Of a DNA stretch of 52,120 nt, positions 4,772 through 35,402 are shown one piece after another. Origin of the DNA: a virus (lineage: Duplodnaviria > Caudoviricetes); the IMG/VR virus record IMGVR_UViG_3300006120_000030, positions 1-52,120 of that record; one strand, written 5' to 3'. The translations under genes and the position numbers were made by a program. Below the pieces are notes generated by a model. It saw nothing but the letters and a program-made list of their open reading frames with translations. It had not been told where the DNA came from and did no database searches. Every line of letters starts with the position of its first letter. Within the stretch, counting starts at the first letter, position 1.

Positions 4772-4856
4772 GCACGGGTTGAGCAGCGGTCGCTCAGCTG
4801 GCTGTAAACCAGTGGCCCTCCGGGGTATGTGGGTTCAAATCCCACCCTGTGCACCA
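4772..4856 (+). tRNA. tRNA-Tyr(GTA)
   Basis: cloverleaf, loop ctGTAaa, long variable arm, encoded CCA. Confidence 0.92.
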
Positions 4857-4971
4857 CGACGAGGTAACACTTGTCGCTGTTCTCTGACAATCAGCACAAT
4901 GTCGAAGAAGAGAGACCCTCTGTAGAGGTGCTGCTCTTCGCTGGGATGAGCAGCCACTCATCCCATAACAT

Positions 4972-5055
4972 GCTCAGGTGGCGTAACTGGCAGGCGCGCG
5001 AGTCTCAGAAGCTCGTGGAGTAACATCCGTGTGGGTTCGATCCCCACCCTGAGCA
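4972..5055 (+). tRNA. tRNA-Leu(CAG)
   Basis: cloverleaf, ctCAGaa, long variable arm. Confidence 0.9.
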
Positions 5056-5085
5056 CAACTGGTCTGTGAAAGCAGACGAGCCTAT

Positions 5086-5167
5086 GCACGAATGGCGTAA
5101 TTGGCAGGCGCGCTGGTCTGAGGGGCCAGTGGAGAAATCCGTGTGGGTTCGACCCCCACTTCGTGCA
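5086..5167 (+). tRNA. tRNA-Leu(GAG)
   Basis: cloverleaf, ctGAGgg. Confidence 0.9.
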
Positions 5168-5175
5168 CAAATCTT

Positions 5176-5257
5176 GCTCTGGTGGCGTAACTGGCAGGCG
5201 CGGTTGTTTCAAAAGCAGCTGTCGAAAGACGTGTGGGTTCAAGTCCCACCCGGAGCA
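5176..5257 (+). tRNA. tRNA-Leu(CAA)
   Basis: cloverleaf, ttCAAaa. Confidence 0.9.
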
Positions 5258-5281
5258 CAAAGACAAAGACGAAGTGATGTG

Positions 5282-5311
5282 GTGCAAAGTAGAGACTGAC
5301 GTGATAAGATG
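5282..5311 (+). promoter_or_regulatory. internal promoter motif in the tRNA array
   Basis: GTGCAAAGT...TGATAAGAT; similar copies at 8943 and 12946. Confidence 0.65.
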
Positions 5312-5327
5312 AGCAGGTAGAAGAAAC

Positions 5328-5399
5328 GGGGCCATCGTCCAACTGGGAAGACACTACCATGGCATGGTAAAAATTCGGGTTCAACTCCCGATGGCTCCA
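5328..5399 (+). tRNA. tRNA-Ala(GGC)
   Basis: cloverleaf with G3:U70. Confidence 0.88.
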
Positions 5400-5468
5400 C
5401 TAGAGGCGGACAACCCTGCCTTACCGTTCACTCGGTGAAGCAACCCTTCCGGGAAGCAGGTGACCAAT

Positions 5469-5539
5469 GGGGGTGTGGTTCAAAGGGAGAACTTCTGCCT
5501 TGCACGCAGACGATCGGGGTTCGATTCCCCGCACCTCCA
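5469..5539 (+). tRNA. tRNA-Ala(TGC)
   Basis: cloverleaf, ctTGCac, G3:U70. Confidence 0.9.
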
Positions 5540-5653
5540 CTAGTCTTAACGGAGATGGTTAGCCGTTCCAGAGCACAATCGCGGTCCTCGAAACTCCACG
5601 ACGTTCTGGTGTGATACAGACTCAAAACGTTTCACAATCCTCTAACTGAGCTC

Positions 5654-5725
5654 GGGTCCATCGTCAAACTGGGAAGACACTACGTTCGCAACGTAGAGAT
5701 CCGGGTTCAACTCCCGGTGGATCCA
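5654..5725 (+). tRNA. tRNA-Ala(CGC)
   Basis: cloverleaf, ttCGCaa, G3:U70. Confidence 0.9.
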
Positions 5726-5731
5726 CGACAC

Positions 5732-5804
5732 GGTCGGGTTGCTCCTTGGGAGGAGCGTTCGGTTGAAGCCCGAATGTAAGGGAGTTCGAATCTCCCCCTG
5801 ACCA
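5732..5804 (+). tRNA. tRNA-Phe(GAA)
   Basis: cloverleaf, ttGAAgc. Confidence 0.85.
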
Positions 5805-5891
5805 CGAGGGTGCAGATGCAGGTTCGAGCCCTGCCGTGAACCATCGCCTCGCAAGGGCGACCACGTAGGACAAATGGAAGTCCAGCACCCG
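5805..5891 (+). ncRNA. circularly permuted tRNA-like RNA (YrlA-type Y RNA topology)
   Basis: gggtgc/gcaccc closing stem enclosing T arm, hairpin-capped acceptor stem, then D arm. Confidence 0.6.
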
Positions 5892-5943
5892 TTAACTTGA
5901 ACCCGAGCATTTACAGGTAGTTTTGCTCAGGTTACTATACGAC

Positions 5944-6417
5944 ATGACTTACGAATGCAAAGTCTGCGGCAGGAGCTTCGATAAAAAGCGAACGAAAAGC
6001 ATTCACCAGTTCTGGTGTGACCCACAAACAAAGCCTGACACAGCGGGTCCTAAGAATCCGATGTGGAAGAAGCGTGGGAAAAATCAGTGGATGAAAGTTG
6101 ACTGGGACTCAAAGCCCTACGAAGAACTTGGTCGAGGCATGAAGCGTAAGCGCCTTCTTGAAGAGGCAAAATATTCATGCACGATGTGTGGATTTTCTCA
6201 AACTCGAACTGATGGAACGTGCATCTTGCAGATCGATCATATCGATGGCAATGGTTCGAACAATGAAAAGAGCAATCTACGCGTCCTATGTCCCAACTGT
6301 CACGCTGTTCATTCTGAAAAGTTCATGTTCATCGGACAACGTCACAGTGAAGAAACGCGCGCCCTAATAGGTGCACAAAATCGGGAAAGAAATTCCCCTC
6401 GTCCTAGTGGAATCTAG
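5944..6417 (+). CDS. HNH homing endonuclease
   Basis: CTMCG...IDHIDG..NN..SNLRVLCPNCH; lower GC than flanks; paralog of 12485. Confidence 0.88.
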   Translation: MTYECKVCGRSFDKKRTKSIHQFWCDPQTKPDTAGPKNPMWKKRGKNQWMKVDWDSKPYEELGRGMKRKRLLEEAKYSCTMCGFSQTRTDGTCILQIDHIDGNGSNNEKSNLRVLCPNCHAVHSEKFMFIGQRHSEETRALIGAQNRERNSPRPSGI

Positions 6418-6469
6418 GCATCCTCCTCCGAAGTGGATTGTTCAGGTTCGATTCCTGGCGTGGGGACCA
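6395..6469 (+). tRNA. tRNA-Arg(CCG)
   Basis: cloverleaf, ctCCGaa, CCA; 5' end overlapped by HNH ORF. Confidence 0.75.
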
Positions 6470-6484
6470 CGAAAGGAGCGTCAC

Positions 6485-6688
6485 ATGGAGAAGAAAGTAG
6501 TCCTGCTGAAACCTGGCTTCATGGACAAGCCCCTCATCGACAAGGATGGAAACGAACTGACGATGGCAGAGACAAGCGAGTACTGGGATGACGTCTTTGA
6601 CGGCGGCATTCCGATGAGCGCAGAGTACGCCAGGAACTATCTCTGGCCGAAGTGGGGCGAGCGACTGGGAATCGCAAAGCCCACGTGA
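6485..6688 (+). CDS. hypothetical protein inside the tRNA array
   Basis: AAGGAG Shine-Dalgarno before ATG 6485. Confidence 0.7.
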   Translation: MEKKVVLLKPGFMDKPLIDKDGNELTMAETSEYWDDVFDGGIPMSAEYARNYLWPKWGERLGIAKPT

Positions 6689-6771
6689 CAGAACAATGGG
6701 GAAAGCCGCTCTATCGATGCCGTCTTTCGGCGGCGAAGGCTTGACAGGTGGGAGAGTGACCACCAGCTAAT

Positions 6772-6846
6772 GCTGTCATGCGCATCTGGGATGCGGCTCG
6801 GCCGTCTACCGAGTGAGGCACGGTTCGATTCCGGCTGGCAGCGCCA
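6772..6846 (+). tRNA. tRNA-Asp(GTC)
   Basis: cloverleaf, ccGTCta, GCCA end. Confidence 0.8.
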
Positions 6847-6892
6847 AGGGAAAGCCGCCTATGATCTAGGCTTGACATGGGAGAGTCCAAAT

Positions 6893-6963
6893 GCCACGTG
6901 ATGCGACTGGGTCGCAGTCTGATTGTCTATCAGATGAGACGGGTTCGACTCCCGTACGTGGCG
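6893..6963 (+). tRNA. tRNA-Asp(GTC)
   Basis: cloverleaf, ttGTCta. Confidence 0.87.
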
Positions 6964-7057
6964 CCGCTTCGTGTCCTGCTCAACCCTGGAATGATGCCCA
7001 GGGCAGCAAACCGGCGAGCCAATCGCATGTTAGGCTGGGACCCGCGGATCTTACTAC

Positions 7058-7132
7058 GCGTCTGTAACTCAACTGGATCAGAGTAATCGGTTCTTACCCG
7101 GTAGGTTGTGGGTTCAAGTCCCACCAGACGCA
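7058..7132 (+). tRNA. tRNA-Lys(CTT)
   Basis: cloverleaf, ttCTTac. Confidence 0.9.
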
Positions 7133-7225
7133 CTGCTCGTGACTGAGGACTTTGATGCTCCGGGTCGATCCCGGGAAGCGGTTCACCAGCGAAGGATATA
7201 GACTGGCCAGATTCACGAGCGATAC

Positions 7226-7301
7226 GCATCAGGAACTCGAGTGGCAGAGAGCCAGGTTCTTACCCTGGTGAGTGCGGGTTCGAGCCCCGTCTGATGCACC
7301 A
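7226..7301 (+). tRNA. tRNA-Lys(CTT)
   Basis: cloverleaf, ttCTTac, CCA. Confidence 0.88.
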
Positions 7302-7363
7302 ACGCGACGAACAAGAAAGGACCACAGAATGGAACGAAAACAGGCTCCGAAACGGAGCTGACT

Positions 7364-7435
7364 GCACCGGTAACACAATGGTAGTGACCCATCCTTTTAA
7401 GTTGGTGTATGCGAGTTCGACTCTCGCCCGGCGCA
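7364..7435 (+). tRNA. tRNA-Lys(TTT)
   Basis: cloverleaf, ctTTTaa. Confidence 0.82.
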
Positions 7436-7527
7436 CTAGGACTGTTGGCCCTGAACACGGGGGACGTCCACTAAACGCCGCCGGCGTCACCCACACCTTC
7501 GGGTCGTGGGTGCCGTCTGCGTCACAT

Positions 7528-7601
7528 GCCTCAGATGCTCGAAAGGCAAGAGCGCTCGCCCCATAAGCGAGAGGGTGGTGGTTCGATTCCACTCTGAGGT
7601 T
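7528..7601 (+). tRNA. tRNA-Met/Ile2(CAT)
   Basis: cloverleaf, ccCATaa. Confidence 0.8.
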
Positions 7602-7611
7602 CGAAGACTTT

Positions 7612-7680
7612 CTCCCTACCGGTGGACCCGGATCGCTGTTTCCTAAACAGCTTCTCGTGGTTCGATTCCACGTGGGGAGG
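7612..7680 (+). tRNA. tRNA-Arg(CCT), short atypical D arm
   Basis: acceptor, anticodon (ttCCTaa) and T arms intact. Confidence 0.75.
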
Positions 7681-7694
7681 CGAAGTGTTACTAC

Positions 7695-7765
7695 GGACTA
7701 GAAGCTCAATGGCGAGCAGCAAGCTGTTAACTTGCTGGAAGTGGGTTCGATTCCCACCTGGTCCT
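7695..7765 (+). tRNA. tRNA-Asn(GTT)
   Basis: cloverleaf, ctGTTaa. Confidence 0.87.
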
Positions 7766-7766
7766 C

Positions 7767-7842
7767 TGAGGTGTGGCCGAGTGGCTCAGGCAGCGGGTTT
7801 TGGTTCCGCACTACGGGGGTTCAAGTCCCTCCACCTCCACCA
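7767..7842 (+). tRNA. tRNA-Gln(TTG)
   Basis: cloverleaf, ttTTGgt, CCA. Confidence 0.87.
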
Positions 7843-7858
7843 GTTACGGTCACGAAAT

Positions 7859-7930
7859 GCCAGTCAAGTGTCAACGGTTGCACACCTGTTTCCAACTCAG
7901 TAAGAGGGGGTTCGATTCCTCCGATTGGCG
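7859..7930 (+). tRNA. tRNA-Trp(CCA)
   Basis: cloverleaf, ttCCAac, weak anticodon stem. Confidence 0.72.
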
Positions 7931-7931
7931 C

Positions 7932-8007
7932 TGGTTCCTAGTTCAATTGGCTAGATCGCTTCTCTCTGAAAGAAGAGATACGGGTTCGAATCCCGTGGGA
8001 CCTACCA
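7932..8007 (+). tRNA. tRNA-Gln(CTG)
   Basis: cloverleaf, ctCTGaa, CCA. Confidence 0.87.
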
Positions 8008-8055
8008 TTCGAACTTCAGGATGTACATCATCCTTAGTTCGAGTATAGTTAAGAC

Positions 8056-8658
8056 ATGCAATGTGAAAGGGGCCTTCTTCCTCATCTGGGAACTTACGGG
8101 TCTGGGCGTTTTTGCTCAGCAAAGTGCGCTCGAGGATTCTCATCAGCTGAGAAGCGGCATGAGATCAACGAAAAGGTTCGTAAGACCCTGTCAAAAAAGT
8201 TCGTTGATCCTCACAGCGATGATGTTTTTCGAGCAGCAGCAGATCAAGCAAAGAGTTGGGCTCACCTACTTCGCTTGTTGTCATTCCCTGTTGCAGGAAA
8301 TACACACAATCACGTCAAGCGAAGGGCGGAGCTTCTAGCGATTGACACAACACACATCTGGAAGAAGCTAGCATCGGTCGAAGACATTCTGACAAAAACC
8401 AATAGAGGGTATGGCATTCGTCTTCGAACAAGTCTGATCAAGATCGGTCGTGAGTATGTGTGTGGAATTTGTGGGCAAGAGCCCTTCTGGAACGGGAGAC
8501 CTCTGACACTTCAAGTCGATCACATCAACGGTGATCGTTTCGATCACACTCCTGAGAATTTGCGATTTGCATGTCCAAACTGTCATACGCAAACTCCGAC
8601 CTTCGGGTCGAAGAATAGAAAACGCGTCGCTACTTGTCTGGTGACAAGCCTTGTGTGA
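8056..8658 (+). CDS. HNH homing endonuclease
   Basis: RFCSAKC N-terminal motif; LQVDHINGDRFDHTPENLRFACPNCHTQT. Confidence 0.9.
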   Translation: MQCERGLLPHLGTYGSGRFCSAKCARGFSSAEKRHEINEKVRKTLSKKFVDPHSDDVFRAAADQAKSWAHLLRLLSFPVAGNTHNHVKRRAELLAIDTTHIWKKLASVEDILTKTNRGYGIRLRTSLIKIGREYVCGICGQEPFWNGRPLTLQVDHINGDRFDHTPENLRFACPNCHTQTPTFGSKNRKRVATCLVTSLV

Positions 8659-8696
8659 CACACAAGTGCAGGCGGGTTCGATCCTCGCGCGACGCA
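8624..8696 (+). tRNA. tRNA-Val(GAC)
   Basis: cloverleaf, gtGACac; HNH stop codon lies in its anticodon loop. Confidence 0.8.
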
Positions 8697-8724
8697 CTGC
8701 AGACTTCGCTGTCTGCGACTTCAC

Positions 8725-8925
8725 TTCCGCGTAGCCCAACGGACGGGCACCTACAAAACGAAGAGGCTCCGGTAAAACGGCGGGAAGGCCCACTTCAACG
8801 GTGGGTAGGCTCTAAGGTTGCAGAAGCACCGAATGGCATGGAGATCCCAGGTCGCTAGGGAAGCACGTGATCCTCCAAAAATGGAGCCGAACGACTCGAT
8901 GTGGGTTCGATTCCCACCGCGGAAA
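8725..8925 (+). ncRNA. tRNA-like RNA with ~150-nt insert replacing the anticodon arm
   Basis: ttccgcg/cgcggaa acceptor, gccc/gggc D arm, gtggg-ttcgatt-cccac T arm. Confidence 0.65.
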
Positions 8926-9009
8926 CAAAGACGATTCGAGAAATGCAAAGATGAGAATGACGTGATAGAGTAGACAGGTAGAGAGAAACGACGAAGACGT
9001 GATGATGAC

Positions 9010-9082
9010 CGGCCAATGGTCTAGTGGTTCTGGACGGGAAGCTGATAACTTCTAGGTCGAGGTTCGATTCCTCGTTGGCCGA
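9010..9082 (+). tRNA. tRNA-Ile(GAT)
   Basis: cloverleaf, ctGATaa. Confidence 0.9.
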
Positions 9083-9083
9083 C

Positions 9084-9160
9084 TGCAGGAGAGTGACGCG
9101 GTTCATGCAAGGCTCATAACCTTCGCGACGGCAGGGTTCGACTCCCTGTTCCTGCTACCA
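9084..9160 (+). tRNA. tRNA-Met(CAT), initiator-like
   Basis: ctCATaa, 1:72 mismatch, CCA. Confidence 0.78.
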
Positions 9161-9162
9161 AT

Positions 9163-9235
9163 CGATCTGTAGCGCAACGGTTGACGCGCTTCTTTCACAC
9201 AGAAGAACACAGGGGTTCGACTCCCTTCTGATCGA
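9163..9235 (+). tRNA. tRNA-Val(CAC)
   Basis: cloverleaf, ttCACac. Confidence 0.85.
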
Positions 9236-9244
9236 CGAAGACTT

Positions 9245-9318
9245 GCCCTCGTAGCTCAGCGGAATAGAGCTATCGCCTTCTAAGCGATGGGTCGCTGGTT
9301 CGATTCCAGCCGAGGGTG
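9245..9318 (+). tRNA. tRNA-Arg(TCT)
   Basis: canonical cloverleaf, ctTCTaa. Confidence 0.93.
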
Positions 9319-9333
9319 CTACGGAAAGATTTT

Positions 9334-9406
9334 GCCCCTGCCAGCGGCCCTGGCGAAGAGTCTACGAAACTCATCTGCGAACGTTCAACTCGTTTCAGGG
9401 GCTCCA
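9334..9406 (+). tRNA. tRNA-Arg(ACG), short atypical D arm
   Basis: ctACGaa, acceptor gcccctg/caggggc, CCA. Confidence 0.75.
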
Positions 9407-9414
9407 CTTGTTAC

Positions 9415-9488
9415 GCTCCCATCATTGCTAGCGGCTAGGCAACTTGGTTCTCAGCCAAGGAACACGGGTTCGAGTCCCGTTGGGCGCA
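9415..9488 (+). tRNA. tRNA-Glu(CTC)
   Basis: cloverleaf, ttCTCag. Confidence 0.85.
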
Positions 9489-9564
9489 CGAGGGTTGTGT
9501 TTGGGTGCAAGTCCCAATAAATCGTCTGCAGCGAAGTCACAGCGGCGCACGACCCGCTAACTAC

Positions 9565-9636
9565 GTCTCTATCGTCTAGCGGCAAGGACAGCTGATTCTC
9601 AATCAGCAAACGCGGGTTCGATTCCCGCTAGGGACA
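9565..9636 (+). tRNA. tRNA-Glu(CTC)
   Basis: cloverleaf, ttCTCaa. Confidence 0.9.
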
Positions 9637-9655
9637 CAAAGTTGATGTGTGAAAC

Positions 9656-9727
9656 GTCCCAGTCGTCTACAGGAAGGACACTAGGTTTTCAACCTGGGTA
9701 ACGCGGGTTCGATTCCCGTCTGGGACA
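9656..9727 (+). tRNA. tRNA-Glu(TTC)
   Basis: cloverleaf, ttTTCaa. Confidence 0.9.
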
Positions 9728-9731
9728 CTAC

Positions 9732-9813
9732 CGGAGATTCGCCTATTGGGATGGCGCCTGCTTTGGGAGCAGGAGAGGAAACTCACTAGGGTGTTCGATT
9801 CACCCATCTCCGA
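9732..9813 (+). tRNA. tRNA-Pro(TGG) with long variable arm
   Basis: ttTGGga; gag-gaaa-ctc extra arm. Confidence 0.82.
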
Positions 9814-9814
9814 C

Positions 9815-9886
9815 TGGGACGCCGCTAGAGCGGCCGCGATTCTGATCAGGCGCGAGACGCAGGTGCAATTCCTGCCGTCCCAACCA
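9815..9886 (+). tRNA. atypical tRNA, probably Gln(CTG); Ile(GAT) reading also possible
   Basis: tgggacg/cgtccca acceptor, CCA, enlarged anticodon loop attctgatcagg. Confidence 0.5.
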
Positions 9887-9926
9887 GTCTTGATACAAGT
9901 TTCGGATTCGAAGTATACTTGCTGAC

Positions 9927-10493
9927 ATGGACATCGAACAGGTTCGAGACATCGTAAGAACGTCACATTGCAAGACTGCTGCGATGGAACGTCTTGGGAT
10001 CACTCTCAATGGACGTGGAACGAAGAAGTTTGATCAACTCGTTGTCCAGTACGAACTGAATGTTGAGCACTTTGATACTCATGCAAAAACGAGGAAGTAC
10101 GAACGAATTTCAAAGATATGTCCTGGGTGTCTAAAGACATTTGCGACACTGAAAGGATTTCCTAGAGAGAAAGTCGTATGTTCTCACGCATGTGCTAACA
10201 CTTACTTTCGATCAGGAGAGAACAATCCAAATCGCCAGCGACGCAATGAAAGGATTGACCGGGGAGAACTGACGTATGCAGAGACATGTTGGCTGCATCA
10301 CAAGCGAGAGTGCATCATTTGCGGAGAAACGCTCGTTGTCGAAGCGCATCACTATAACGAGGACCACAGTGACAATCGTCCTGAGAACTTCGTTCCTCTC
10401 TGCCCAACACATCATCAGTACTGGCATTCGCGTTATCGGAATGTTGTCGAGGACAAAGTTCGTGAGTATGTAGAGAAATTCATCGGGGTGTAA
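9927..10493 (+). CDS. HNH homing endonuclease
   Basis: CPGC/CSHAC motif; CIICG..EAHH..DHSDNRPENFVPLCPTHH. Confidence 0.88.
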   Translation: MDIEQVRDIVRTSHCKTAAMERLGITLNGRGTKKFDQLVVQYELNVEHFDTHAKTRKYERISKICPGCLKTFATLKGFPREKVVCSHACANTYFRSGENNPNRQRRNERIDRGELTYAETCWLHHKRECIICGETLVVEAHHYNEDHSDNRPENFVPLCPTHHQYWHSRYRNVVEDKVREYVEKFIGV

Positions 10494-10555
10494 GTCAGCA
10501 GCAGACAACTCGGTTCGGATCCGAGTAGCCGTTGGTGCAAGTCCAACCATCCCGA
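10484..10555 (+). tRNA. tRNA-Pro(CGG)
   Basis: ttCGGat; 5' end overlapped by HNH ORF. Confidence 0.82.
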
Positions 10556-10559
10556 CTAC

Positions 10560-10642
10560 GGGTCATAGCTAGGCGTCAACATGAGGCCCTCGCGAGAGGG
10601 TTGGACTCATGTGTGTGGGTTCGAGTCCCGCATGATCCACCA
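10560..10642 (+). ncRNA. RNA resembling only the tmRNA tRNA-like domain (no mRNA domain)
   Basis: gggtcat/atgatcc acceptor with G3:U70, A73-CCA, stemless D loop, long helix capped by GCGA, canonical T arm. Confidence 0.6.
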
Positions 10643-10758
10643 TGTGTGAAGGTGTAACGGTTGCAAGCCCAATAGCTGCGCGCACGTTCGATTCGTGCGA
10701 AGGGGTGGTCCCAGTGGCGTCGTCAGACGGGAGGAGAGGTTCGATCCCTCACACACAT
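10643..10758 (+). ncRNA. tRNA-like element with two T arms
   Basis: tgtgtg/cacaca ends, D-like arm, gcacg-ttcgatt-cgtgc and gagg-ttcgatc-cctc. Confidence 0.45.
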
Positions 10759-10762
10759 GAAT

Positions 10763-10848
10763 GGAAGGCTTGGGCATTGGTAAGCCCACCTGTTTCGAAA
10801 ACAGACGATGATGAAAGTTGTCTATCGGTTCAACTCCGGTGCCTTCCG
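10763..10848 (+). tRNA. tRNA-Ser(CGA)
   Basis: ttCGAaa, long variable arm. Confidence 0.85.
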
Positions 10849-10932
10849 CTACGATGCAATCCAGCATCGGATCACAGTGAGCGTCGTGGTGGCAAGTCCC
10901 GGGGGTCGATCCCGTAGCTCACATCGACAAAT

Positions 10933-11015
10933 GGAGAGTGTTGCGGGCGTGGGCCGGCACCCGATTGGAACTCGGGCAGTGAGAAATTACTAGGGTTCGA
11001 CTCCCTCTCTCTCCT
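10933..11015 (+). tRNA. tRNA-Ser(GGA)
   Basis: ttGGAac, long variable arm. Confidence 0.78.
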
Positions 11016-11095
11016 CCGCTGAACTGTTCGTGACTCGTGGTCCCTCTAAGATCCCCTTTGAAAGACAAGTAGACGGCGGATTCAGCGTGCACTTC

Positions 11096-11182
11096 GGAAG
11101 GATGGCCGAGCGGTTGATGGCTCCGGTTTTGAAAACCGGCGTGGGTGAAAGCTCACCGGGGGTTCGAATCCCTCTTCTTCCA
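11096..11182 (+). tRNA. tRNA-Ser(TGA)
   Basis: canonical class II cloverleaf, ttTGAaa. Confidence 0.92.
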
Positions 11183-11200
11183 CTGCGACGATGTGTGATT

Positions 11201-11285
11201 GGAAGATGCTGTCCCAGTGGTGGGACCCCCGGTTGCTACCCGGGTTGGGGCGCAAGCCCCAGAGGTTCGACTCCTCCTTCTTCCG
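11201..11285 (+). tRNA. tRNA-Ser(GCT)
   Basis: ttGCTac, long variable arm. Confidence 0.82.
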
Positions 11286-11362
11286 CAGGCCTGCTCAGGA
11301 GCCTATCCCGAGCTTGGTTCCGCCGGTAAACCAGAGGGGAAGATCCTCGACCCCGGCTCCAT

Positions 11363-11438
11363 GGTGGCAGAAGCCAAACGGCTAGGCGCATGATTGTGGA
11401 TCATGTATTAGCGGGTTCAACTCCCGTCTGTCACCCCA
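11363..11438 (+). tRNA. tRNA-His(GTG)
   Basis: G-1, ttGTGga, C73-CCA. Confidence 0.92.
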
Positions 11439-11439
11439 C

Positions 11440-11514
11440 GGCGGGGAACGCTACCGATCTGCGGCCTGTCTGCAAAACAGGTGCTAGTGGGTTCAACTCC
11501 CACCCCCGCCTCCA
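11440..11514 (+). tRNA. tRNA-Cys(GCA)
   Basis: ctGCAaa, U73-CCA. Confidence 0.88.
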
Positions 11515-11517
11515 ACG

Positions 11518-11676
11518 TCTTCGTGTCAGTAACGCATGGCCTACCTGCAGGGTCAAAAAGTGCAGTGCTGGAATTGGCATACAGGGGCCTGGCGAAAGCT
11601 GGGTTGCCCCGCCGACCTTGTAAGTCGGAGAAGGGCGTGCGGGTTCGAGTCCCGAATACGTGAAACTCACGAAGAT
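11518..11676 (+). ncRNA. permuted Leu-type tRNA-like RNA inside an outer stem
   Basis: tcttcgtg/cacgaaga outer stem; closed ctgca/tgcag stem, Leu-like D loop, GAAA-capped arm, long arm, T arm. Confidence 0.55.
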
Positions 11677-11679
11677 TAC

Positions 11680-11751
11680 GCTGAAATGGTGCTAGTGGCA
11701 GCACGATCCTTTGGTATGGGATAGGCGCGGTTTCGATTACCGCTTTCAGCT
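11680..11751 (+). tRNA. tRNA-Thr(GGT)
   Basis: cloverleaf, ttGGTat. Confidence 0.88.
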
Positions 11752-11772
11752 CTGCCTCGAAAGAGGCGACTT

Positions 11773-11844
11773 GCAGCACAGGTCAAGTGGTTAGACGTCG
11801 CGTTGCCAACGCGATTTAGAGGAGTTCGATTCTCCCGTGCTGCT
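11773..11844 (+). tRNA. tRNA-Gly(GCC)
   Basis: cloverleaf, ttGCCaa. Confidence 0.87.
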
Positions 11845-11874
11845 CAAACCGCGCGATGTATAATCGCACGGAAC

Positions 11875-11956
11875 GCGGGTATGGCTCAGTGGCGACAGCA
11901 TCAGTTTTCCAAACTGATATACAACACCGTGGGTTCGAGTCCCACTACCCGCTCCA
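11875..11956 (+). tRNA. tRNA-Gly(TCC), extended variable region
   Basis: ttTCCaa, U73-CCA. Confidence 0.87.
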
Positions 11957-11957
11957 T

Positions 11958-12030
11958 TGCTAGGTCGAATAACTGGGAATTCACCGCACTGTTAATGCGG
12001 CCGATGTAGGTTCGACTCCTACCCTAGCAG
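11958..12030 (+). tRNA. tRNA-Asn(GTT)
   Basis: cloverleaf, ctGTTaa. Confidence 0.88.
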
Positions 12031-12033
12031 CTA

Positions 12034-12351
12034 ATGTCAAAAAAGAAGAACATCCGCCAGAACTTTCGCGATGCTGTCTTTGAGAGAGACAAACATCGGT
12101 GTCGTATGTGTCCAAAGGTGCTGGGTCTGGGTGAGGGCCTTGATGCCCACCACATCACGGACAGAGGCGACATGCCCAATGGTGGGTACGTCAAGGAGAA
12201 CGGCATCGCCCTCTGCGAGAACTGCCACATCAAGGCCGAAGAATTCCACTCGACGGGCACGTCCCATCCCGGGTACTCTCCCGAGGACCTCTACCGAGTG
12301 ATCGGTTCCAGCCACATTGCGGCTGTGAACGCGTCAGAAAGGCTGAAGTGA
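12034..12351 (+). CDS. HNH endonuclease
   Basis: VFERDKHRCRMC..LDAHHI..NGIALCENCH. Confidence 0.85.
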   Translation: MSKKKNIRQNFRDAVFERDKHRCRMCPKVLGLGEGLDAHHITDRGDMPNGGYVKENGIALCENCHIKAEEFHSTGTSHPGYSPEDLYRVIGSSHIAAVNASERLK

Positions 12352-12355
12352 TTAC

Positions 12356-12428
12356 GCTGGTGTAGCGCAAAGGCAGACGCGCCTCTCTCGTAAGGAGGAT
12401 CATGTGGGTTCAACTCCCATCACCAGCT
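12356..12428 (+). tRNA. tRNA-Thr(CGT)
   Basis: cloverleaf, ctCGTaa. Confidence 0.88.
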
Positions 12429-12484
12429 CAAAGGTAGAGCGAAGCAGGCATTTACATGCTCTAGATCTAGAGTAGATTCTCTGT

Positions 12485-12961
12485 ATGCCGGAATGTGATT
12501 TCTGCGGAAAGGTTTACACGAGTCGAGGGTTCCTCTTTCATAGAAGATATTGTAGGAAGAATCCTGATCGAGATTCTACGCTGAGAAAAAGTCAAGCATG
12601 GCTTGACGCGATGTCCCAGCGCAAGGGCCAATCGATCAATCAGTACAAGGACGTCGATTGGTCATCTGTTCCATTTGACATCTTGACCTTCAGCAAGAAG
12701 CGTCAACGTCTCCTTGAAGAGAGTAAATTCTCCTGTACCTTGTGTGGATTTTCGACTCGTCGACCGTGTGGGGGTTCGATCCTTGAGATTGACCATCTTG
12801 ACGGCGATCACACAAACAACACGCGAGAAAATCTTCGCGTACTATGTCCTAACTGTCACGCTCTCACGCCCAACTTTCGCAATTGGGGCAGAACATCGAC
12901 GAAGAAAACCTCAAAAAGAGTTCGCAAGGGCAACAAAGACTTCAAGTGTAAAGTCGACTAG
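12485..12961 (+). CDS. HNH homing endonuclease
   Basis: ILEIDHLDGDHTNNTRENLRVLCPNCHALT; paralog of 5944. Confidence 0.9.
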   Translation: MPECDFCGKVYTSRGFLFHRRYCRKNPDRDSTLRKSQAWLDAMSQRKGQSINQYKDVDWSSVPFDILTFSKKRQRLLEESKFSCTLCGFSTRRPCGGSILEIDHLDGDHTNNTRENLRVLCPNCHALTPNFRNWGRTSTKKTSKRVRKGNKDFKCKVD

Positions 12962-12986
12962 ACGTGGTGTAAGGTAGTCAAGTAAC

Positions 12987-13069
12987 GCCTGGGTCCCATA
13001 GCGGTCGATTGGTCGGGTTTTGTAAACCCGCGGAGCAATCCCACGTGAGTTCGACTCTCACTCCAGGCT
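12987..13069 (+). tRNA. tRNA-Thr(TGT) with long variable arm
   Basis: ttTGTaa; gga-gcaa-tcc extra arm. Confidence 0.82.
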
Positions 13070-13091
13070 CCGCGACATTGTGCTGATTCGA

Positions 13092-13164
13092 GCCTCTTTA
13101 GCTCAGCGGTAGTAGCGTTCGGCTTACACCCGGATGGTCGTCGGTTCGATCCCGACAGGAGGCA
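13092..13164 (+). tRNA. tRNA-Val(TAC)
   Basis: canonical cloverleaf, ctTACac. Confidence 0.92.
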
Positions 13165-13171
13165 CAAAATC

Positions 13172-25048: not shown

Positions 25049-25606
25049 ATGCCGTCATTTGTGTATGTGATCACTAACACGGTGAATGGAAAGCGATACG
25101 TCGGCAAGTCTATTGACCCAGATGGTCGTTGGTGGCAACATCGAAGAGCAGCCAAAATTCGACCTGGGACATGCTTAGTCGCACATGCGATTCGAAAATA
25201 CGGAGAGGAGTGCTTCATATTCGAAGTACTCGCAAGATTTGAGACCGACGACGAGGCTTGTGCAGAAGAGATCAGGCTGATCGCTGAGTGGAAAACTCAG
25301 GATCGATTGCTTGGTTATAATTTGACATCTGGTGGTGATGGTCGAGCAGGTATTCCCTGCTCTGAACTGACGAAGAAGAAGATGAGTGATGCACAAATCG
25401 GCAAAACGCTCTCTGAGGAACACTGTCGACACCTAAGTGATGGCGCCAAAAGAAAGATCATCACGAAAGAACACCGTGACAAGATCACAGCATCTCTGAA
25501 AAAGAGAGTCGTCTCAGATGAGACGAAGAAGAAGATTAGCGATACGAAGAAGCGCAAGCGACTTGAAAAGTTGAGTGTCGAGTCGCTGACCGAAGAGGCA
25601 AAATGA
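25049..25606 (+). CDS. GIY-YIG homing endonuclease with NUMOD3-type repeats
   Basis: FVYVITNTVNGKRYVGKS, AIRKYG, GYNLTSGGDG, SE.TKKKMS repeats. Confidence 0.92.
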   Translation: MPSFVYVITNTVNGKRYVGKSIDPDGRWWQHRRAAKIRPGTCLVAHAIRKYGEECFIFEVLARFETDDEACAEEIRLIAEWKTQDRLLGYNLTSGGDGRAGIPCSELTKKKMSDAQIGKTLSEEHCRHLSDGAKRKIITKEHRDKITASLKKRVVSDETKKKISDTKKRKRLEKLSVESLTEEAK

Positions 25607-26337
25607 TCGAAAGAGCGTATGTTCGGTATCGTGAAAGTCTTCCAGACAATGCCAATACGTTTGCTGCGGCCGAGGGGTTCACCATGCAGGGTGTGCCCGT
25701 CGTTCCGTTCTACGGATTCGGGGACCTGAAGGAGTACTTCGACCAGGGCAAGCTTACCAAGGAGACCATCGTCTGTGGCCACATCGGTGACGTCTGGGAG
25801 GTGCTGGGATTCTTCGGAAAACAGGCGCCGCCGCCTCTCGACTACCCGCCCCACCTGAAGTGGCTCATCTCCCGTCGAATCTGGGAGACCACGCTGGGCG
25901 AGGCCCGACAGAGCGCTGACGTCTTCTTCGTCAAGCCCGTGAAGCAGAAGATCTTCACGGGATTCATCTGGGACCCTGCGGACCCACGTAGCAGGCTCAA
26001 CGTCGCGGTCTGCCCTGATGACACGCCCGTCTTGTGCAGTGAGCTCGTGGACTTCAAGTCCGAGTGGCGGTGCTTCGTCAGGAATGACGAGCTCGTGGGC
26101 GTCAAGCACTACAAGGGTGACCCATCGTTGGGCTTCGACATGGACATCCTGAAGCTTGCCATCAAGGACGGTCGAGGCAAGATGCCTGCAGCGCACTCTC
26201 TGGACGTCGGCCGAACTGCGACGGGTGACACGATCCTCGTGGAAGCCAACGAGGGTTATTCCATCGGGGCTTACGGTCTTCCTAGCCTGATCTACTCCCG
26301 CTTCCTCGAGGCTCGGTGGGAAGAGCTGATGAAGTAG
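25603..26337 (+). CDS. ATP-grasp protein (DUF4343/R2K-type)
   Basis: DYP..L...I.RRIW, FVKP..QKIFTG, EWRCFV, LDVG, LVEANEGYSIG.YG. Confidence 0.8.
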   Translation: MIERAYVRYRESLPDNANTFAAAEGFTMQGVPVVPFYGFGDLKEYFDQGKLTKETIVCGHIGDVWEVLGFFGKQAPPPLDYPPHLKWLISRRIWETTLGEARQSADVFFVKPVKQKIFTGFIWDPADPRSRLNVAVCPDDTPVLCSELVDFKSEWRCFVRNDELVGVKHYKGDPSLGFDMDILKLAIKDGRGKMPAAHSLDVGRTATGDTILVEANEGYSIGAYGLPSLIYSRFLEARWEELMK

Positions 26338-26372
26338 TGTAAAGTCAACGTCCTAAGTGATAGGGTTGGTAC

Positions 26373-26681
26373 ATGGACATCCTCGCCGCGCTCTTCATCG
26401 TTCTCTTGTGTTGCTCGCCGCTGATCTTCTACGGGATTGCGTCGATTCGCAGGGACTCGACTGACAAGTTCGCTGGACAGTGGACGCCCCCTTGCCCGCC
26501 GGCTCGTTCTCCATCTGCAGGCGTGCGGGTCACCCTCAAGGAACCGCACCTCCACTGGCACAAGGGCACGAGGCTCGTGGTAGTGGAGTCCACTCCCGTC
26601 TTCCTCCTCGTGCAGGATGAGCTGGGCAAGCGTGCCCTTCTCGCCGTGACCCACATCGAGATGGAGACCCACCAGCCGTGA
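26373..26681 (+). CDS. membrane-anchored hypothetical protein
   Basis: 36 nt after motif; N-terminal TM. Confidence 0.6.
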   Translation: MDILAALFIVLLCCSPLIFYGIASIRRDSTDKFAGQWTPPCPPARSPSAGVRVTLKEPHLHWHKGTRLVVVESTPVFLLVQDELGKRALLAVTHIEMETHQP

Positions 26682-27073
26682 ACAAGATCTTCCTCGACGA
26701 CGAGCGGTCGCCGCCCGATGACACGTGGTTGGTCTTCCGGACCGCGCCTGAGCTGATCGCCCACCTTGTGGAAGTGGGTGGCTCAGGTCGGACGGGATGG
26801 GACGGTATGACCATCTCTCTTGACCACGACCTGGGAGTGTGCAAGCGATGCCTGGCCGAGTATAATGGGCCGGGGATTCCCAGCACGTGCGAGCACACTG
26901 GAACGGGCTACGACGTGGTCGTGTTCCTCGAGGAGTTCTTTCACTGGGCCGTCAACCAGGGAGGGTTCATCCCGGACATGACGCTACTCGTGCACTCCCA
27001 GAACCCAGTGGGTCGAATGCGGATGATGCAAGGGATCAACAACATCGGAAGAATCACCAACGGCATCCTCTAG
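26678..27073 (+). CDS. cyclic-phosphate-processing receiver domain protein
   Basis: IFLDDERSPP, ISLDHDLG, TGYDVV, VHSQNPVGR. Confidence 0.85.
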   Translation: MNKIFLDDERSPPDDTWLVFRTAPELIAHLVEVGGSGRTGWDGMTISLDHDLGVCKRCLAEYNGPGIPSTCEHTGTGYDVVVFLEEFFHWAVNQGGFIPDMTLLVHSQNPVGRMRMMQGINNIGRITNGIL

Positions 27074-27137
27074 CCCATTGCGGCGCCGGCGCAACTACGT
27101 CTGTGGAACTCCCATCCAACCATCGAAAGAGAAAGAC

Positions 27138-27725
27138 ATGTCAGGCAACATCTCCAACTGCGTCCACTACCTCGTCGGCACCAAGAAGAACTCCTCCAAG
27201 GAGAAGTACGCGTTCAAGGGGCCCTACAACAACTACTTTCGGGTGACTCACAAGCCCATCGCCCATCGGACTGCGTCGGCGCTGGCGCGCAAGCTCACTC
27301 GCTACTGGGCGGTCTCCTCGGAGCGCATGATCGCCGGGCCGGGAAAGAACGACGCCTTCATCAAGGACGCTGGTGACGGCCTCGTCGTGGTCACCGTGGA
27401 CCTCACCACGGGGGAGCGGCACGTGCGCACGGCCGACGAGTTCATCCGCTACGTGGCAGAGTATCGAGCCCGTCCCAAGTCGGGCACGAAGAAGCTCTCA
27501 GCGCCCGTGAGGCCGCTCATCGACAGCCTGGGCAAGCCCTGCACCCTCGGCGATGACGTGGTCATGGCGGGCTATACGGGGCATCCGTATCGGGGAACCA
27601 TTTCCGGGTTCACGCCCTACAACGTCCAGGTTCTCGTTCCCGCGGCTCCAGACTCGAAGTGGGGTCCGTACCACAAGTACGTGTCCTACCGACGATTCCG
27701 ACACGCAGTCATCAAGCTGAGCTAA
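27138..27725 (+). CDS. hypothetical protein
   Basis: long ORF; C-terminal SH3-like DSLGKPCTLGDDV. Confidence 0.65.
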   Translation: MSGNISNCVHYLVGTKKNSSKEKYAFKGPYNNYFRVTHKPIAHRTASALARKLTRYWAVSSERMIAGPGKNDAFIKDAGDGLVVVTVDLTTGERHVRTADEFIRYVAEYRARPKSGTKKLSAPVRPLIDSLGKPCTLGDDVVMAGYTGHPYRGTISGFTPYNVQVLVPAAPDSKWGPYHKYVSYRRFRHAVIKLS

Positions 27726-27731
27726 TCAACA

Positions 27732-28217
27732 ATGCGCGTCTTTTTCTTTGACTTCGATGGTGTAGCGAACTCAAACGAGTGGCTCCACAGGACTTTCGAT
27801 GAGCGTCGAAGTCAGGTAACGGGCGCGGCATTTGACCCTGCCATGGACCTTGATCCCGAACGCATCGTACTGATCAATGAGATCGTCGAGGCGACGGGAG
27901 CTATGGCAGTGTTCTCCACGTCGTGGCGGTGCGCGTACTCTGACGATCGACTCATGGACTTCCTGACCCGCCGAGGCTTCAAAGGCACGTGTGTGGGCAG
28001 GACCATCGAGGAGTTTCCCGACGGGGAGATCTTCCGTGGTCGTGAGGAAGAGATCAAGGAGTGGCTTGAGTGCCACGACGTGGAATCGTGGGTCGCAATC
28101 GATGACACCAATCTGAAGGGTCTCGGCGAGAACTTCATTCGAACGAATGCACACGTTGGAATCCAACCAGCAGACGTCCAGAAGGCGATTCGCGTCCTGA
28201 ACGGGGAGAAGCCGTGA
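27732..28217 (+). CDS. HAD phosphatase, Swiss-army-knife RNA repair type
   Basis: FFDFDGV, VFSTSWR, REEEIKEWL, WVAIDD. Confidence 0.85.
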   Translation: MRVFFFDFDGVANSNEWLHRTFDERRSQVTGAAFDPAMDLDPERIVLINEIVEATGAMAVFSTSWRCAYSDDRLMDFLTRRGFKGTCVGRTIEEFPDGEIFRGREEEIKEWLECHDVESWVAIDDTNLKGLGENFIRTNAHVGIQPADVQKAIRVLNGEKP

Positions 28218-28477
28218 CCATTACAGTGGAACAGCTGATCGAGGAGCTGAAGAATTGCGATCCGAAGCATGTCGTCGTGATGGCAGGCGATGGGGAGGGA
28301 AACAGCTTCAGGTTGTGCGCGGGTGCCGACGGAGAGAATCAGGTCTTCAAGCGCGACAAGGACAGACGCGGCACAATTGGCCTCGGCGAGCTTACTCCTG
28401 AGCTCTCGGGACTTGGGTACACTGATGATGACGTTCTTGAGGGCGGCATTCCCTGCGTCGTCCTGTGGCCGGTGTGA
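28214..28477 (+). CDS. hypothetical protein
   Basis: TVEQLIEELK..D.EGNSF..CVVLWP phage-family pattern. Confidence 0.7.
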   Translation: MTITVEQLIEELKNCDPKHVVVMAGDGEGNSFRLCAGADGENQVFKRDKDRRGTIGLGELTPELSGLGYTDDDVLEGGIPCVVLWPV

Positions 28478-28478
28478 C

Positions 28479-28964
28479 ATGGCGAGAAATGTCAACAGCT
28501 ACGGGTGCTTGCCGTCTGAGGACGTGTGCCTGCAACACGATGAACCCCTCGTGAACAGGTATAAGTGCGAGAAGGGCACAAATCTCAACACTTACGTTCC
28601 GCAGGCGCTTCGCCTCACGGACGAGCAAGCGAAGGCTCTCGTTGAGGAGGGTCGGCGAGCCGCCGCAGAATACACGAAGCGGTGCAAGGGCATGCACGGT
28701 CCGGTCGAGATGGACTACAAGCACGCTGCTATGGAGCGGGCAGCTTGGAGGCTGCACGATCGGTTCGCTGCTCTCCAGCAAGAGATGGCGATCTGGAAGT
28801 TGGCTCACTTCTGGGGTGTGATCTTCAGGGATATCCTGGTTGCCACGCCTTGCGCATGTGGGCATCAATACCACTGGTCTGGAGAGTGCTGGGAGGGCAA
28901 CGAATGTAACTGCCCATGCTACCAGGCTGACCTCAGCAAATCTCCGACAAATCAGCAGGGTTGA
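28479..28964 (+). CDS. hypothetical protein, Cys-rich C-terminus
   Basis: ORF; CACGH..H..C..C.C.C. Confidence 0.6.
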   Translation: MARNVNSYGCLPSEDVCLQHDEPLVNRYKCEKGTNLNTYVPQALRLTDEQAKALVEEGRRAAAEYTKRCKGMHGPVEMDYKHAAMERAAWRLHDRFAALQQEMAIWKLAHFWGVIFRDILVATPCACGHQYHWSGECWEGNECNCPCYQADLSKSPTNQQG

Positions 28965-29037
28965 CCAGCACGCCATTTGTCCCGAATAAAGCAGCCCAGT
29001 GTAAAGTGTTGCACGGGCATGTTAGAGTGAGAGCATC

Positions 29038-30441
29038 ATGTCATTCAAGTACGCGGTAGAGAAGGTCGGAACGAACCACTACGTCCTGCCGAAGGTGGGC
29101 GGGATGAAGGTGGAGGCGCACGCGTTCCTGTCAGAGGAGCTGTACAACGCTTCTGAAGAGAACGTGTGGTCGCAGATCGCGTCCGGAGCGTCCTACGAGG
29201 GCGTGATCGGAGCGTACCTGATGCCGGACACGCACTCGGGCTACGGAGTTCCGGTAGGATCCGTTGTGGTGACGGACAACGTCATCATCCAGGGCGGGTC
29301 GGGCTACGACATCTCCTGCGGCATCCTGTACATGAAGGCGCAGCTGAACGCGGGCTCCATCAAGGGCAAGTACGATCGGCAGCGCTGGGTTCGCGAGGTG
29401 GAGGACCGCATCGCGACGGGCAAGGGACACCACCGCCCGAAGCTGATGCCGAAGTTCACGCAGACGCAGGCGGACGAGATCCTCCGCTACGGCGCGAAGG
29501 CGCTTGGCGTGGACGAGATGCTGTGCGAGCGCCAGTTCATTCCGGTCGATCCCATGGCGGACCTGAAGAAGATCCCGCGGGCGTACGACTCCGTGCTGGG
29601 CCAGCTGGGCTCGGTGGGTGGTGGAAACCACTTCGTCGAGATGCAGGTGGACCGCGACACGGGCGAGGTGTACATCATGGTGCACTGCGGGTCTCGAGGC
29701 TACGGCTGGCAGACGGCGAACCACTACTTCTACGAGGGTGCTCGCGTCCGTGGAATGCCGGAGTCGCGCCGTGAGGACGCGTGGTTGTACGCGGACGAGC
29801 CGATGGGCAAGGAGTACTGGGCGCACCACAACTCGGCAGCGAACTTCGCTGTCGCGAACCGGCACATCATCGTCGCGGGCATCCGCGAGGCGACGCAGGA
29901 GGTCTTCAACTCCGACGTCGAGGTCTACTACGAGATCTCCCACAACCTGGTTCAGGAGGAGACGCTCGTGCTGCCGGACGGGACGCACAAGAAGGGCTTC
30001 GTCCACCGCAAGGGGGCGACGCGAGCGATGCCGGCGGGCCACCCGGACCTGGTGGGAACGCACTGGGAGAAGACGGGTCACCCGTGCCTGATCCCGGGCT
30101 CGATGTACGAGGGCGCGGCGATCCTCATCCCGCAGGAGGGCGCGTACAAGTCGTGCTGCAGCGTGAACCACGGCTCCGGCCGAATCATGGCTCGCGGCAA
30201 GGCGAAGCGGCAGCTGGAGCACAAGCAGCTCCACATCGACGAGGAGATGGCGACGGTCAAGCGGACGTTCAACGGAACGACGGTCGAGGGCATCATGTCC
30301 AACCACCGACACATCCCGCTCGACGAGTGCGCGCACGTTTACAAGGATCTCGACTCCGTCCTGGCGGTGCTCGAAGACGAGAACATCGCGAAGGTGCAGA
30401 ACCGCCTGTATCCGGTCGCGAACATCAAGGGAGCTGACTGA
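29038..30441 (+). CDS. rtcB: RtcB RNA ligase (3'-phosphate/cyclic-phosphate ligase)
   Basis: MPDTHSGYGVPVG, GYDISCG, LGSVGGGNHFVE, HCGSRG, HNL, VHRKGAT, IPGSM, SVNHGSGR, DE..YKD; own promoter motif. Confidence 0.96.
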   Translation: MSFKYAVEKVGTNHYVLPKVGGMKVEAHAFLSEELYNASEENVWSQIASGASYEGVIGAYLMPDTHSGYGVPVGSVVVTDNVIIQGGSGYDISCGILYMKAQLNAGSIKGKYDRQRWVREVEDRIATGKGHHRPKLMPKFTQTQADEILRYGAKALGVDEMLCERQFIPVDPMADLKKIPRAYDSVLGQLGSVGGGNHFVEMQVDRDTGEVYIMVHCGSRGYGWQTANHYFYEGARVRGMPESRREDAWLYADEPMGKEYWAHHNSAANFAVANRHIIVAGIREATQEVFNSDVEVYYEISHNLVQEETLVLPDGTHKKGFVHRKGATRAMPAGHPDLVGTHWEKTGHPCLIPGSMYEGAAILIPQEGAYKSCCSVNHGSGRIMARGKAKRQLEHKQLHIDEEMATVKRTFNGTTVEGIMSNHRHIPLDECAHVYKDLDSVLAVLEDENIAKVQNRLYPVANIKGAD

Positions 30442-33434: not shown

Positions 33435-33847
33435 GCAAGAAGCCGAGCGAGTACATCATCGTTAACAAGGCACACGACGCCAAAGCCCGTTACTGGTCTG
33501 GTAACACCTACGCTCCCTGGCGTGAGAATCAGATCGATGCAGAGCGATTCACTCTTCGCTGGGCGTGGTACACGCTCAATGCTGCAGACAAGACCTGCGA
33601 TCATCGTGCCTATGCCGTGAAGATTGTCAAGAAGGACAAGAAGCGGTACGTCGTCAAGACGAACAAGCTCGGTCCCGGTACAGACATGTACGTCACTGAG
33701 TACGGTCAGCCGTCGATCCTCCAGTCCCGAGCAGAGCGGTTCACTCGTGACGGAGCGCTCGTAGAGATGGGCAAGTTCCTCGAGAGTGATGCCTCCGACT
33801 CCTTCACGAACGTCCGCATCGTCAAGCTCACCAAGGCCTCCGGGTGA
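33431..33847 (+). CDS. hypothetical protein with internal duplication
   Basis: two Y(I/V)(I/V)..Q..AERFT..V(K/R)IVK halves. Confidence 0.65.
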   Translation: MSKKPSEYIIVNKAHDAKARYWSGNTYAPWRENQIDAERFTLRWAWYTLNAADKTCDHRAYAVKIVKKDKKRYVVKTNKLGPGTDMYVTEYGQPSILQSRAERFTRDGALVEMGKFLESDASDSFTNVRIVKLTKASG

Positions 33848-35242: not shown

Positions 35243-35402
35243 AGAAGAAAGAACTACTTGCGCTGATCAACCGACTCGAGGAACGCGTAGAGGACCTCGA
35301 GGATGAGGTCGAGGAGATTCGTGTCCGGACAAATCAGTCGTCCTTCGGCTTGCGACCGATCACCCGCTCCGTCAGACCAGAGACCGAGATCTGCGACGAC
35401 GA

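Follow-up and report, generated by a model that had tools for sequence, protein, structure and literature searches.

The concept of a tmRNA reduced to its tRNA-like domain (TLD) is already published, and a single phage example has been described in the literature, that of mycobacteriophage DS6A, which is listed as a 'TLD only' tmRNA (PMC4131195). According to PMC4131195 and PMC11915505, Mao et al. (2009) reported strong inhibition of tmRNA by a similar TLD-only molecule, chargeable or not, and titration of SmpB may be the cause. Tag-less tmRNAs persist alongside SmpB in mitochondria, and the tmRNA counts of the 2025 database include 79 from phages and 9 of the 'standard, no CDS' kind (PMC11915505). 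Polyalanine was obtained in vitro without mRNA from the TLD together with SmpB (Shimizu and Ueda 2006, according to PMC3929946 and PMC2481249). In the complex with SmpB, G19 rests on a hydrophobic patch of the protein and a G19C change prevents binding, while A334 surrounds Trp122 of SmpB together with A15 and U17 (PMC8363625). The general features of the TLD are treated in PMC3968760, PMC3985003, PMC4174442, and PMC3022190. A description of the TLD-only RNAs as a widespread phage family was not found in the freely accessible literature, and the tmRNA sequence database may already include some of the members.

The window, which is the whole stretch of 52,120 nucleotides analysed here, is a linear virus record (IMGVR_UViG_3300006120_000030), and the sequencing runs containing it are freshwater metagenomes. 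CheckV estimated its completeness at ~14%, and therefore a jumbo phage is implied. The element under study is 83 nt long and sits inside a tRNA array (Table 1). Its acceptor is a 7-bp stem, GGGTCAT/ATGATCC, with the alanine identity pair G3·U70. The long helix is ACATGAG/CTCATGT, its cap is GCCCTC-GCGA-GAGGGT, and the T arm is GTGGG-TTCGAGT-CCCGC. The centroid fold is identical to the structure described in Table 1, with a minimum free energy of –34.2 kcal/mol (z –2.0; 6 of 200 shuffles were as good) and pair probabilities from 0.52 to 1.0. All 25 base pairs are intact without any mispair. The capping hairpin stands where tmRNA has its mRNA-like domain and pseudoknots, and neither a tag reading frame nor an anticodon loop occurs in the element, which is a membership feature of the DS6A-type RNA. 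CCA is encoded in the element, while the full CCA is absent from the three tRNA-Ala genes of the phage. Contigs from four of four sequencing runs span all 83 bases with zero differences; among four further runs, one spans 10580-10642 identically and the other three have no coverage there. The sequence of the element is real and not an assembly artefact.

Table 1. Parts of the element and its neighbourhood, with positions in the window.
Feature	Position	Strand	Basis
Whole element, 83-nt TLD-only (tag-less) mini-tmRNA-like gene	10560..10642	+	sequence, fold, R1, register test, Rfam
Acceptor stem, 5' strand, G1 G2 G3	10560..10566	+	sequence, fold
Stemless D loop, tmRNA register	10567..10579	+	family alignment, R1, register test, Rfam
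D-loop bases G13 G14; U17 C18; A19; A20	10572-10573; 10576-10577; 10578; 10579		
Helix 2a equivalent, 5' strand, begins at C21	10580..10585	+	fold, register test
6-bp capping hairpin, GCGA tetraloop	10586..10601	+	fold
4-nt bulge UGGA, 3' side	10602..10605	+	fold
Helix 2a equivalent, 3' strand	10606..10611	+	fold, register test
Connector UGU, equivalent of G333-A334-C335	10612..10614	+	family comparison
Canonical T arm, 5 bp, TTCGAGT loop	10615..10631	+	sequence, Rfam tRNA alignment
Acceptor 3' strand, discriminator A73 (10639) and encoded CCA (10640-10642)	10632..10642	+	sequence, fold
tRNA array (39 ARAGORN tRNA calls, further tRNA-like units, five HNH ORFs)	4772..13165	+	
tRNA-Pro(CGG), ends just upstream of the element	10484..10556	+	ARAGORN, Rfam
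sigma-70-like promoter match, 10/12	9890-9919	+	consensus match only
HNH endonuclease ORF upstream of the element	9927-10493	+	

The initial annotation of this locus had listed the acceptor with G3·U70, A73 and CCA, the stemless D region, and the canonical T arm, and all of these are present in the sequence and in the centroid fold. It had also described the long helix as extended by the hairpin. Both helices are there, but they are not continuous, and the UGGA bulge had been omitted. Its '2-nt linker' is, in tmRNA numbering, the 3-nt connector UGU, of which the first U pairs with A20. The change of two SmpB-contact bases, G19 and A334, had been overlooked.

A register test was carried out with two features that distinguish the tmRNA TLD from tRNA. 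One is the D-loop motif GG-NN-UCGAC, with its end at position 20-22, and the other is a helix that runs from the last C of the motif to the base preceding the 3-nt connector. The motif, which we take to be that of the tmRNA TLD, was likewise seen in the Rfam consensus. The element has six of the seven motif bases and a 6-bp helix in the tmRNA register. None of 368 control tRNAs reaches 6 on either measure, and only 2 of 200,000 interior shuffles match the element on both. Under less stringent settings, related loci yielded four stretches of tRNA size that pass too, and the test is strong but not absolute. A covariance model, R1, was built from 47 sequences of the phage family described below. 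On R1 the element obtained 36.6 bits, the best of 62 matches in the window, and it is the sole full-length match there that scores clearly higher on R1 than on the tRNA model (36.6 versus 19 bits); the tRNA-Ala at 5469, for instance, has 34.4 bits on R1 and 66.4 on the tRNA model. The total R1 score does not separate the element from tRNA-Ala because an ordinary tRNA-Ala of another phage reaches 39.8 bits. The 36.6 bits are also below those of all 53 held-out family members (48.4–88.7), which had been preselected for the consensus.

In the Rfam search of the window the element was unmatched at the gathering score. When its isolated 101 bases were searched, tmRNA (RF00023) was the best same-clan match with 13.9 bits against a cut-off of 47, a score below the 36.4 bits of the phage's own tRNA-Ala on the same model. 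The tRNA model (RF00005) gave 19 bits against a cut-off of 29, with the D stem and the 7-nt anticodon loop absent. The mitochondrial tmRNA model (RF02544) had no match in the window at E <= 1, and ARAGORN made no call at the element. In a core alignment, the best family member scored 29 and the Ala and Pro tRNAs of the phage from –2 to 8, although the former value lies only at about the 95th–99th percentile of shuffles. The identification as a tag-less tmRNA TLD was upheld by the register test, by the top R1 match in the window, and by tmRNA as the best same-clan model in Rfam. With the observed fold, alanine identity elements, tmRNA register, absent tag frame, and wide phage family, the element is supported as a divergent tag-less TLD of tmRNA, of the DS6A type, in a jumbo-phage tRNA array.

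The phage family was searched for with a degenerate TLD pattern having a short interior in 31 of the 64 parts of IMG/VR (about half). The pattern matched 120 stretches in these parts (~260 estimated) and led to at least 100 distinct sequences of 72–101 nt, mostly 80–83. The acceptor is a perfect 7-bp stem in 82 of 100 copies. G3·U70 and the T loop of the family are not independent findings because the pattern fixed both, and copies with other T loops, such as one in L043, were missed. The RF00023 cut-off was passed by 16 of the 20 copies tested. In the 47-sequence alignment, 91.3% of cells are paired, compared with 39–53% in slid controls, and there are 292 two-sided changes versus 92.7 in shuffles. 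The family is a real structured RNA with covarying helices. No close homologue was found that would show covariation for the variant with A19 and UGU. Phage DS6A and the at least 100 phage copies are closer to the element than the precedent named in the initial annotation, the tag-less tmRNAs of jakobid mitochondria. R1 scored 62.1 bits on the DS6A RNA and 73.6 bits on an unannotated copy of the Streptomyces phage BRock (L123:2492-2572). Another tRNA lies within ~1.5 kb at only 12 of 80 family loci.

Several observations accompany the family. In the Streptomyces phages BRock, LuckySocke, GiJojo, pSt2308, Shaeky, and Alone3 (H31-H37), a family member was matched over 78–98% of its length; these matches have no RNA annotation, and the model check covers BRock. 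One locus carries two copies 1.3 kb apart (L043:189-265 and L043:1501-1576), one of them with a non-canonical T loop, and a DUF3800-VIII RNA lies between both. GCAYG is found in the hairpin of 25 of 100 copies, and a full tmRNA (L128:2741-3088) carries GCATG close to each end of its interior. A deletion between these GCAYG-type repeats may have given rise to the mini form. An Ala-acceptor RNA of another phage (L187:1501-1582, G004) combines a full tRNA D arm with a family-type bulged helix in place of the anticodon arm, and it is possibly a chimera of a tRNA and a mini-tmRNA. Short TLD-like RNAs were also seen outside IMG/VR, namely L132:2566-2637, which carries A19 and is called tRNA-Ile by ARAGORN, and L260:1460-1529, which is 70 nt long and comes from a bacterial genome.

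The element departs from this family at defined places. Position 19 is A, whereas it is G in 100 of 100 family copies, even though the pattern permitted A or G. The connector is UGU, whereas the family has G in 86, A in 97, and C in 80 of 100 copies at the three positions; position 334 is accordingly G instead of the A kept in 97. Whereas 78 of 100 copies carry the larger loop on the 5' side, the element has its bulge on the 3' side. The nearest D loop among the family is that of L061. Because it lacks two sequence features, G19 and A334, the element was classed as a variant of the family rather than an ordinary member. What appears to be new here, as judged from the sequence, is a natural and otherwise intact copy with altered SmpB contacts.

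Relatives of this variant were sought in several ways. An exact 21-mer of the element had no match in IMG/VR. A pattern of its own D loop and T arm gave two matches, both by chance, and blastn against cultured phages matched the T arm only; a phiCbK match was rejected as a homologue and is an ordinary tRNA-Ala. A pattern with A19 alone had no match in IMG/VR; JGI metagenomes gave 14 matches and GTDB 5. When these 19 were inspected, 18 turned out to be tRNA-Ala, tmRNA 3' ends, or chance matches, and the single TLD-like one, L132, is without G334. The G334 matches in IMG/VR were register shifts or chance. A second copy with both A19 and G334 was not found in IMG/VR, JGI metagenomes, or GTDB, and a compensatory swap of G19 and A334 is therefore unsupported; the accessible part of PMC8363625 does not describe positions 19 and 334 as a pair. 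A search for cellular tmRNAs with G334 in 1,003 genomes of three phyla gave 20 pattern matches, with no tmRNA among the 19 inspected (ARAGORN tmRNA 0 of 19, Rfam tmRNA 0 of 10 tested), a weak negative. One of the matches comes from a genome marked as unpublished, on which no conclusion is based. Related phages were chosen through the RNA ligase and two HNH genes, which led to distant kin only. No similar element was present in their 29 loci or 10 whole records, and full-length tmRNA was present in three of five records tested. The jumbo phages L223, L224, and L225 (G002, G001, G003) have full-length tmRNAs, with the tag ANDNAYATPALAAA in two of them.

The element directly follows a tRNA-Pro gene and seems to belong to a tRNA polycistron as one of its units. 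A local transcript is possible as well, judging from the promoter match and the HNH ORF upstream (9890..10493). The coding content of the window includes RNA ligase, RtcB, cREC, HAD_SAK_2, a sigma-70 factor, and DNA ligase; no host assignment was obtained from the last two. RNA-repair-type genes lie at 1082-1738, 25603-30441, and 33844-36918 and comprise RNA ligase, R2K ATP-grasp, cREC receiver, HAD_SAK_2, RtcB, dual-specificity phosphatase, and metallophosphoesterase. As far as the predicted domains indicate, RtcB, RNA ligase, and the other RNA-repair domains would be consistent with a phage facing RNA-cutting defences. No SmpB gene occurs within the window (~14% of the genome). A real full-length tmRNA is also absent from it, RF00023 giving nothing above the cut-off; an ARAGORN tmRNA call at 7319-7766 was judged spurious, as it covers three tRNA genes and has no RF00023 match above the cut-off.

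Other unusual units are present in the array. Directly downstream, a tRNA-like unit at 10642-10757 starts with the final A of the element and has a 7-bp acceptor, a D-arm-like start, an extra internal T-arm-like hairpin (10682-10698), and a terminal T arm; it is called by neither ARAGORN nor Rfam. In run X6, two substitutions and one insertion fall in this unit and none in the element, according to one low-depth contig. At about 8725-8925, a tRNA scaffold (acceptor, D arm, T arm at 8901-8917) holds a structured interior ~120 nt longer than that of a tRNA, possibly an intron-like insert or nested units. Odd-armed tRNA-like units at 9814-9887 (with CCA encoded), 11560-11666, 9490-9560, 6770-6848, and 9326-9410 are missed by ARAGORN and lie below the Rfam cut-off. 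Three cloverleaf tRNAs missed by ARAGORN, at 5732-5804, 7859-7930, and 11440-11511, have anticodons reading Phe, Trp, and Cys, and the first two pass Rfam.

The likeliest role of the element would be that of an alanylated SmpB competitor that dampens host tagging with an altered affinity, and we give this reading a probability of roughly 0.5. The RNA would probably be excised from the tRNA polycistron by host tRNA-processing enzymes, is predicted to be charged with alanine by AlaRS, and in its alanylated form would be bound by EF-Tu. It would then bind SmpB in competition with host tmRNA, and as a result fewer phage proteins would be tagged for destruction on ribosomes stalled by RNA-cutting defences. 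By analogy, the reported inhibition of tmRNA by a DS6A-like RNA would speak for this role. Against it are the changed SmpB contacts at G19 and A334, of which the former prevents binding when altered to C (PMC8363625), the R1 score under all held-out members, and the ten protein-related phage records without such a gene. The SmpB step is less certain than for typical members because G19 and A334 are changed. On the other hand, G19A and A334G both replace one purine by another, and the RNA may therefore still stack on SmpB, with a changed affinity.

Instead of competing, the charged RNA might act with SmpB on ribosomes that have stalled on cut mRNA: once inside, it would take over the chain and extend it by one or more alanines in a template-free manner. 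Ribosomes would thereby be freed or re-marked without a tag. We regard this as unlikely. G3·U70 is kept in the element, the TLD with SmpB makes polyalanine in vitro (PMC3929946, PMC2481249), and the tag-less mitochondrial tmRNAs persist with SmpB (PMC11915505). However, the RNA has neither a stop codon nor a release route, the mechanism requires the very SmpB contacts that are changed, and the one in-cell test of such an RNA reported in the accessible part of PMC4131195 resulted in inhibition, chargeable or not.

It is likewise improbable that the element is an SmpB-blind descendant of the family, a stable and chargeable tRNA look-alike that would, for example, serve as a decoy for tRNA-cutting defence nucleases, AlaRS, or EF-Tu or donate alanine without having an anticodon. 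The clustering of the changes at contact bases 19 and 333-335, with helices, acceptor identity, T arm, and CCA intact, would fit such a descent, and the L187 Ala-acceptor RNA of another phage, with its full D arm and family-like interior, would be comparable. U17, C18, A20, C21, and the D-loop length nevertheless stay in the tmRNA register, a persistence that would then be unexplained, and there is no positive evidence for another partner. A19 and G334 could also be a re-tuned interface rather than damage. The RNA would then work either with a divergent SmpB, from the host or from the other 86% of the phage genome, or independently of SmpB. As an alanine donor with no anticodon, it would free or alanine-tail ribosomes stalled by host nucleases, outside the tag-and-destroy pathway. 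This seems quite unlikely to us.

A similarly low chance was given to the element being a mini-tmRNA in decay that no longer has a function. The element has the lowest family score on R1, near-invariant bases are changed, it is a singleton in all searches, and it shares the array with several further malformed tRNA-like units. These points are opposed by the lack of any mispair in 25 base pairs, by the encoded CCA, and, weakly, by run X6. A rough estimate for 25 pairs staying intact while two to four conserved loop bases changed is 0.0001–0.03 under neutral decay, an estimate that is biased because the element was noticed for its stems. Least probable, and already largely refuted, is an aberrant tRNA-Ala or tRNA-Pro unrelated to tmRNA: the element follows two tRNA-Pro genes, its CT-CGC-GA string (10589-10595) and TGG triplet (10602-10604) resemble anticodon loops, GGGTC and CGTCAA are common to it and the tRNA-Ala(CGC) at 5654, and the Rfam tRNA model gives it 19 bits, but the D stem is absent with only 13 nt from the acceptor to the next helix, no stem can close the CGC loop, G1-C72 is presumably excluded as a Pro acceptor by the Pro identity rule, and the core alignment, the register test, and ARAGORN all stand against it.

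When mRNA or tRNA cleavage stalls ribosomes, trans-translation sets the fate of the proteins on them, and many anti-phage systems cause such cleavage. The finding of at least 100 distinct phage copies, which lack annotation even in a cultured Streptomyces phage, suggests that phages commonly influence ribosome rescue by means of an RNA, and the family is testable with short RNAs. The element, the proposed competitor of altered affinity, offers a natural experiment on the bases required by SmpB. It is a poorer model than a consensus member because it is a singleton with weakened hallmarks.

The closest known system is the TLD-only tmRNA of DS6A (tmRNA Website tmID 11587; JN698994, locus L175:979-1058). 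Both RNAs have ~80 nt, a G3·U70 acceptor, a stemless D loop, a T arm, and a helix 2a capped by a short hairpin, and both are without a tag frame. Both match R1 (62.1 bits for DS6A and 36.6 for the element), and neither reaches the Rfam tmRNA cut-off. In DS6A, however, G19 and A334 are retained (connector CAC) and the 5' loop is A-rich, whereas the element carries A19 and UGU, has its bulge on the 3' side, encodes CCA, and sits in a large tRNA array. The phage family in IMG/VR resembles the element in architecture and length, but it keeps both contact bases almost throughout and the element keeps neither. Compared with the standard one-piece tmRNA (SsrA, RF00023), the acceptor, the D-loop register, the start of helix 2a, and the T arm of the element match the model at its two ends, while ~300 model positions, with the tag frame and pseudoknots, are replaced by 14 nt. 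The CDS-less organellar tmRNAs (RF02544 and the plastid forms of Mallomonadaceae) are also without a tag frame (PMC11915505). Mitochondrial tmRNA genes are usually permuted, and the window has no RF02544 match. The organellar CDS-less forms replace the tmRNA of the organelle, whereas the phage RNA would act beside an intact host tmRNA.
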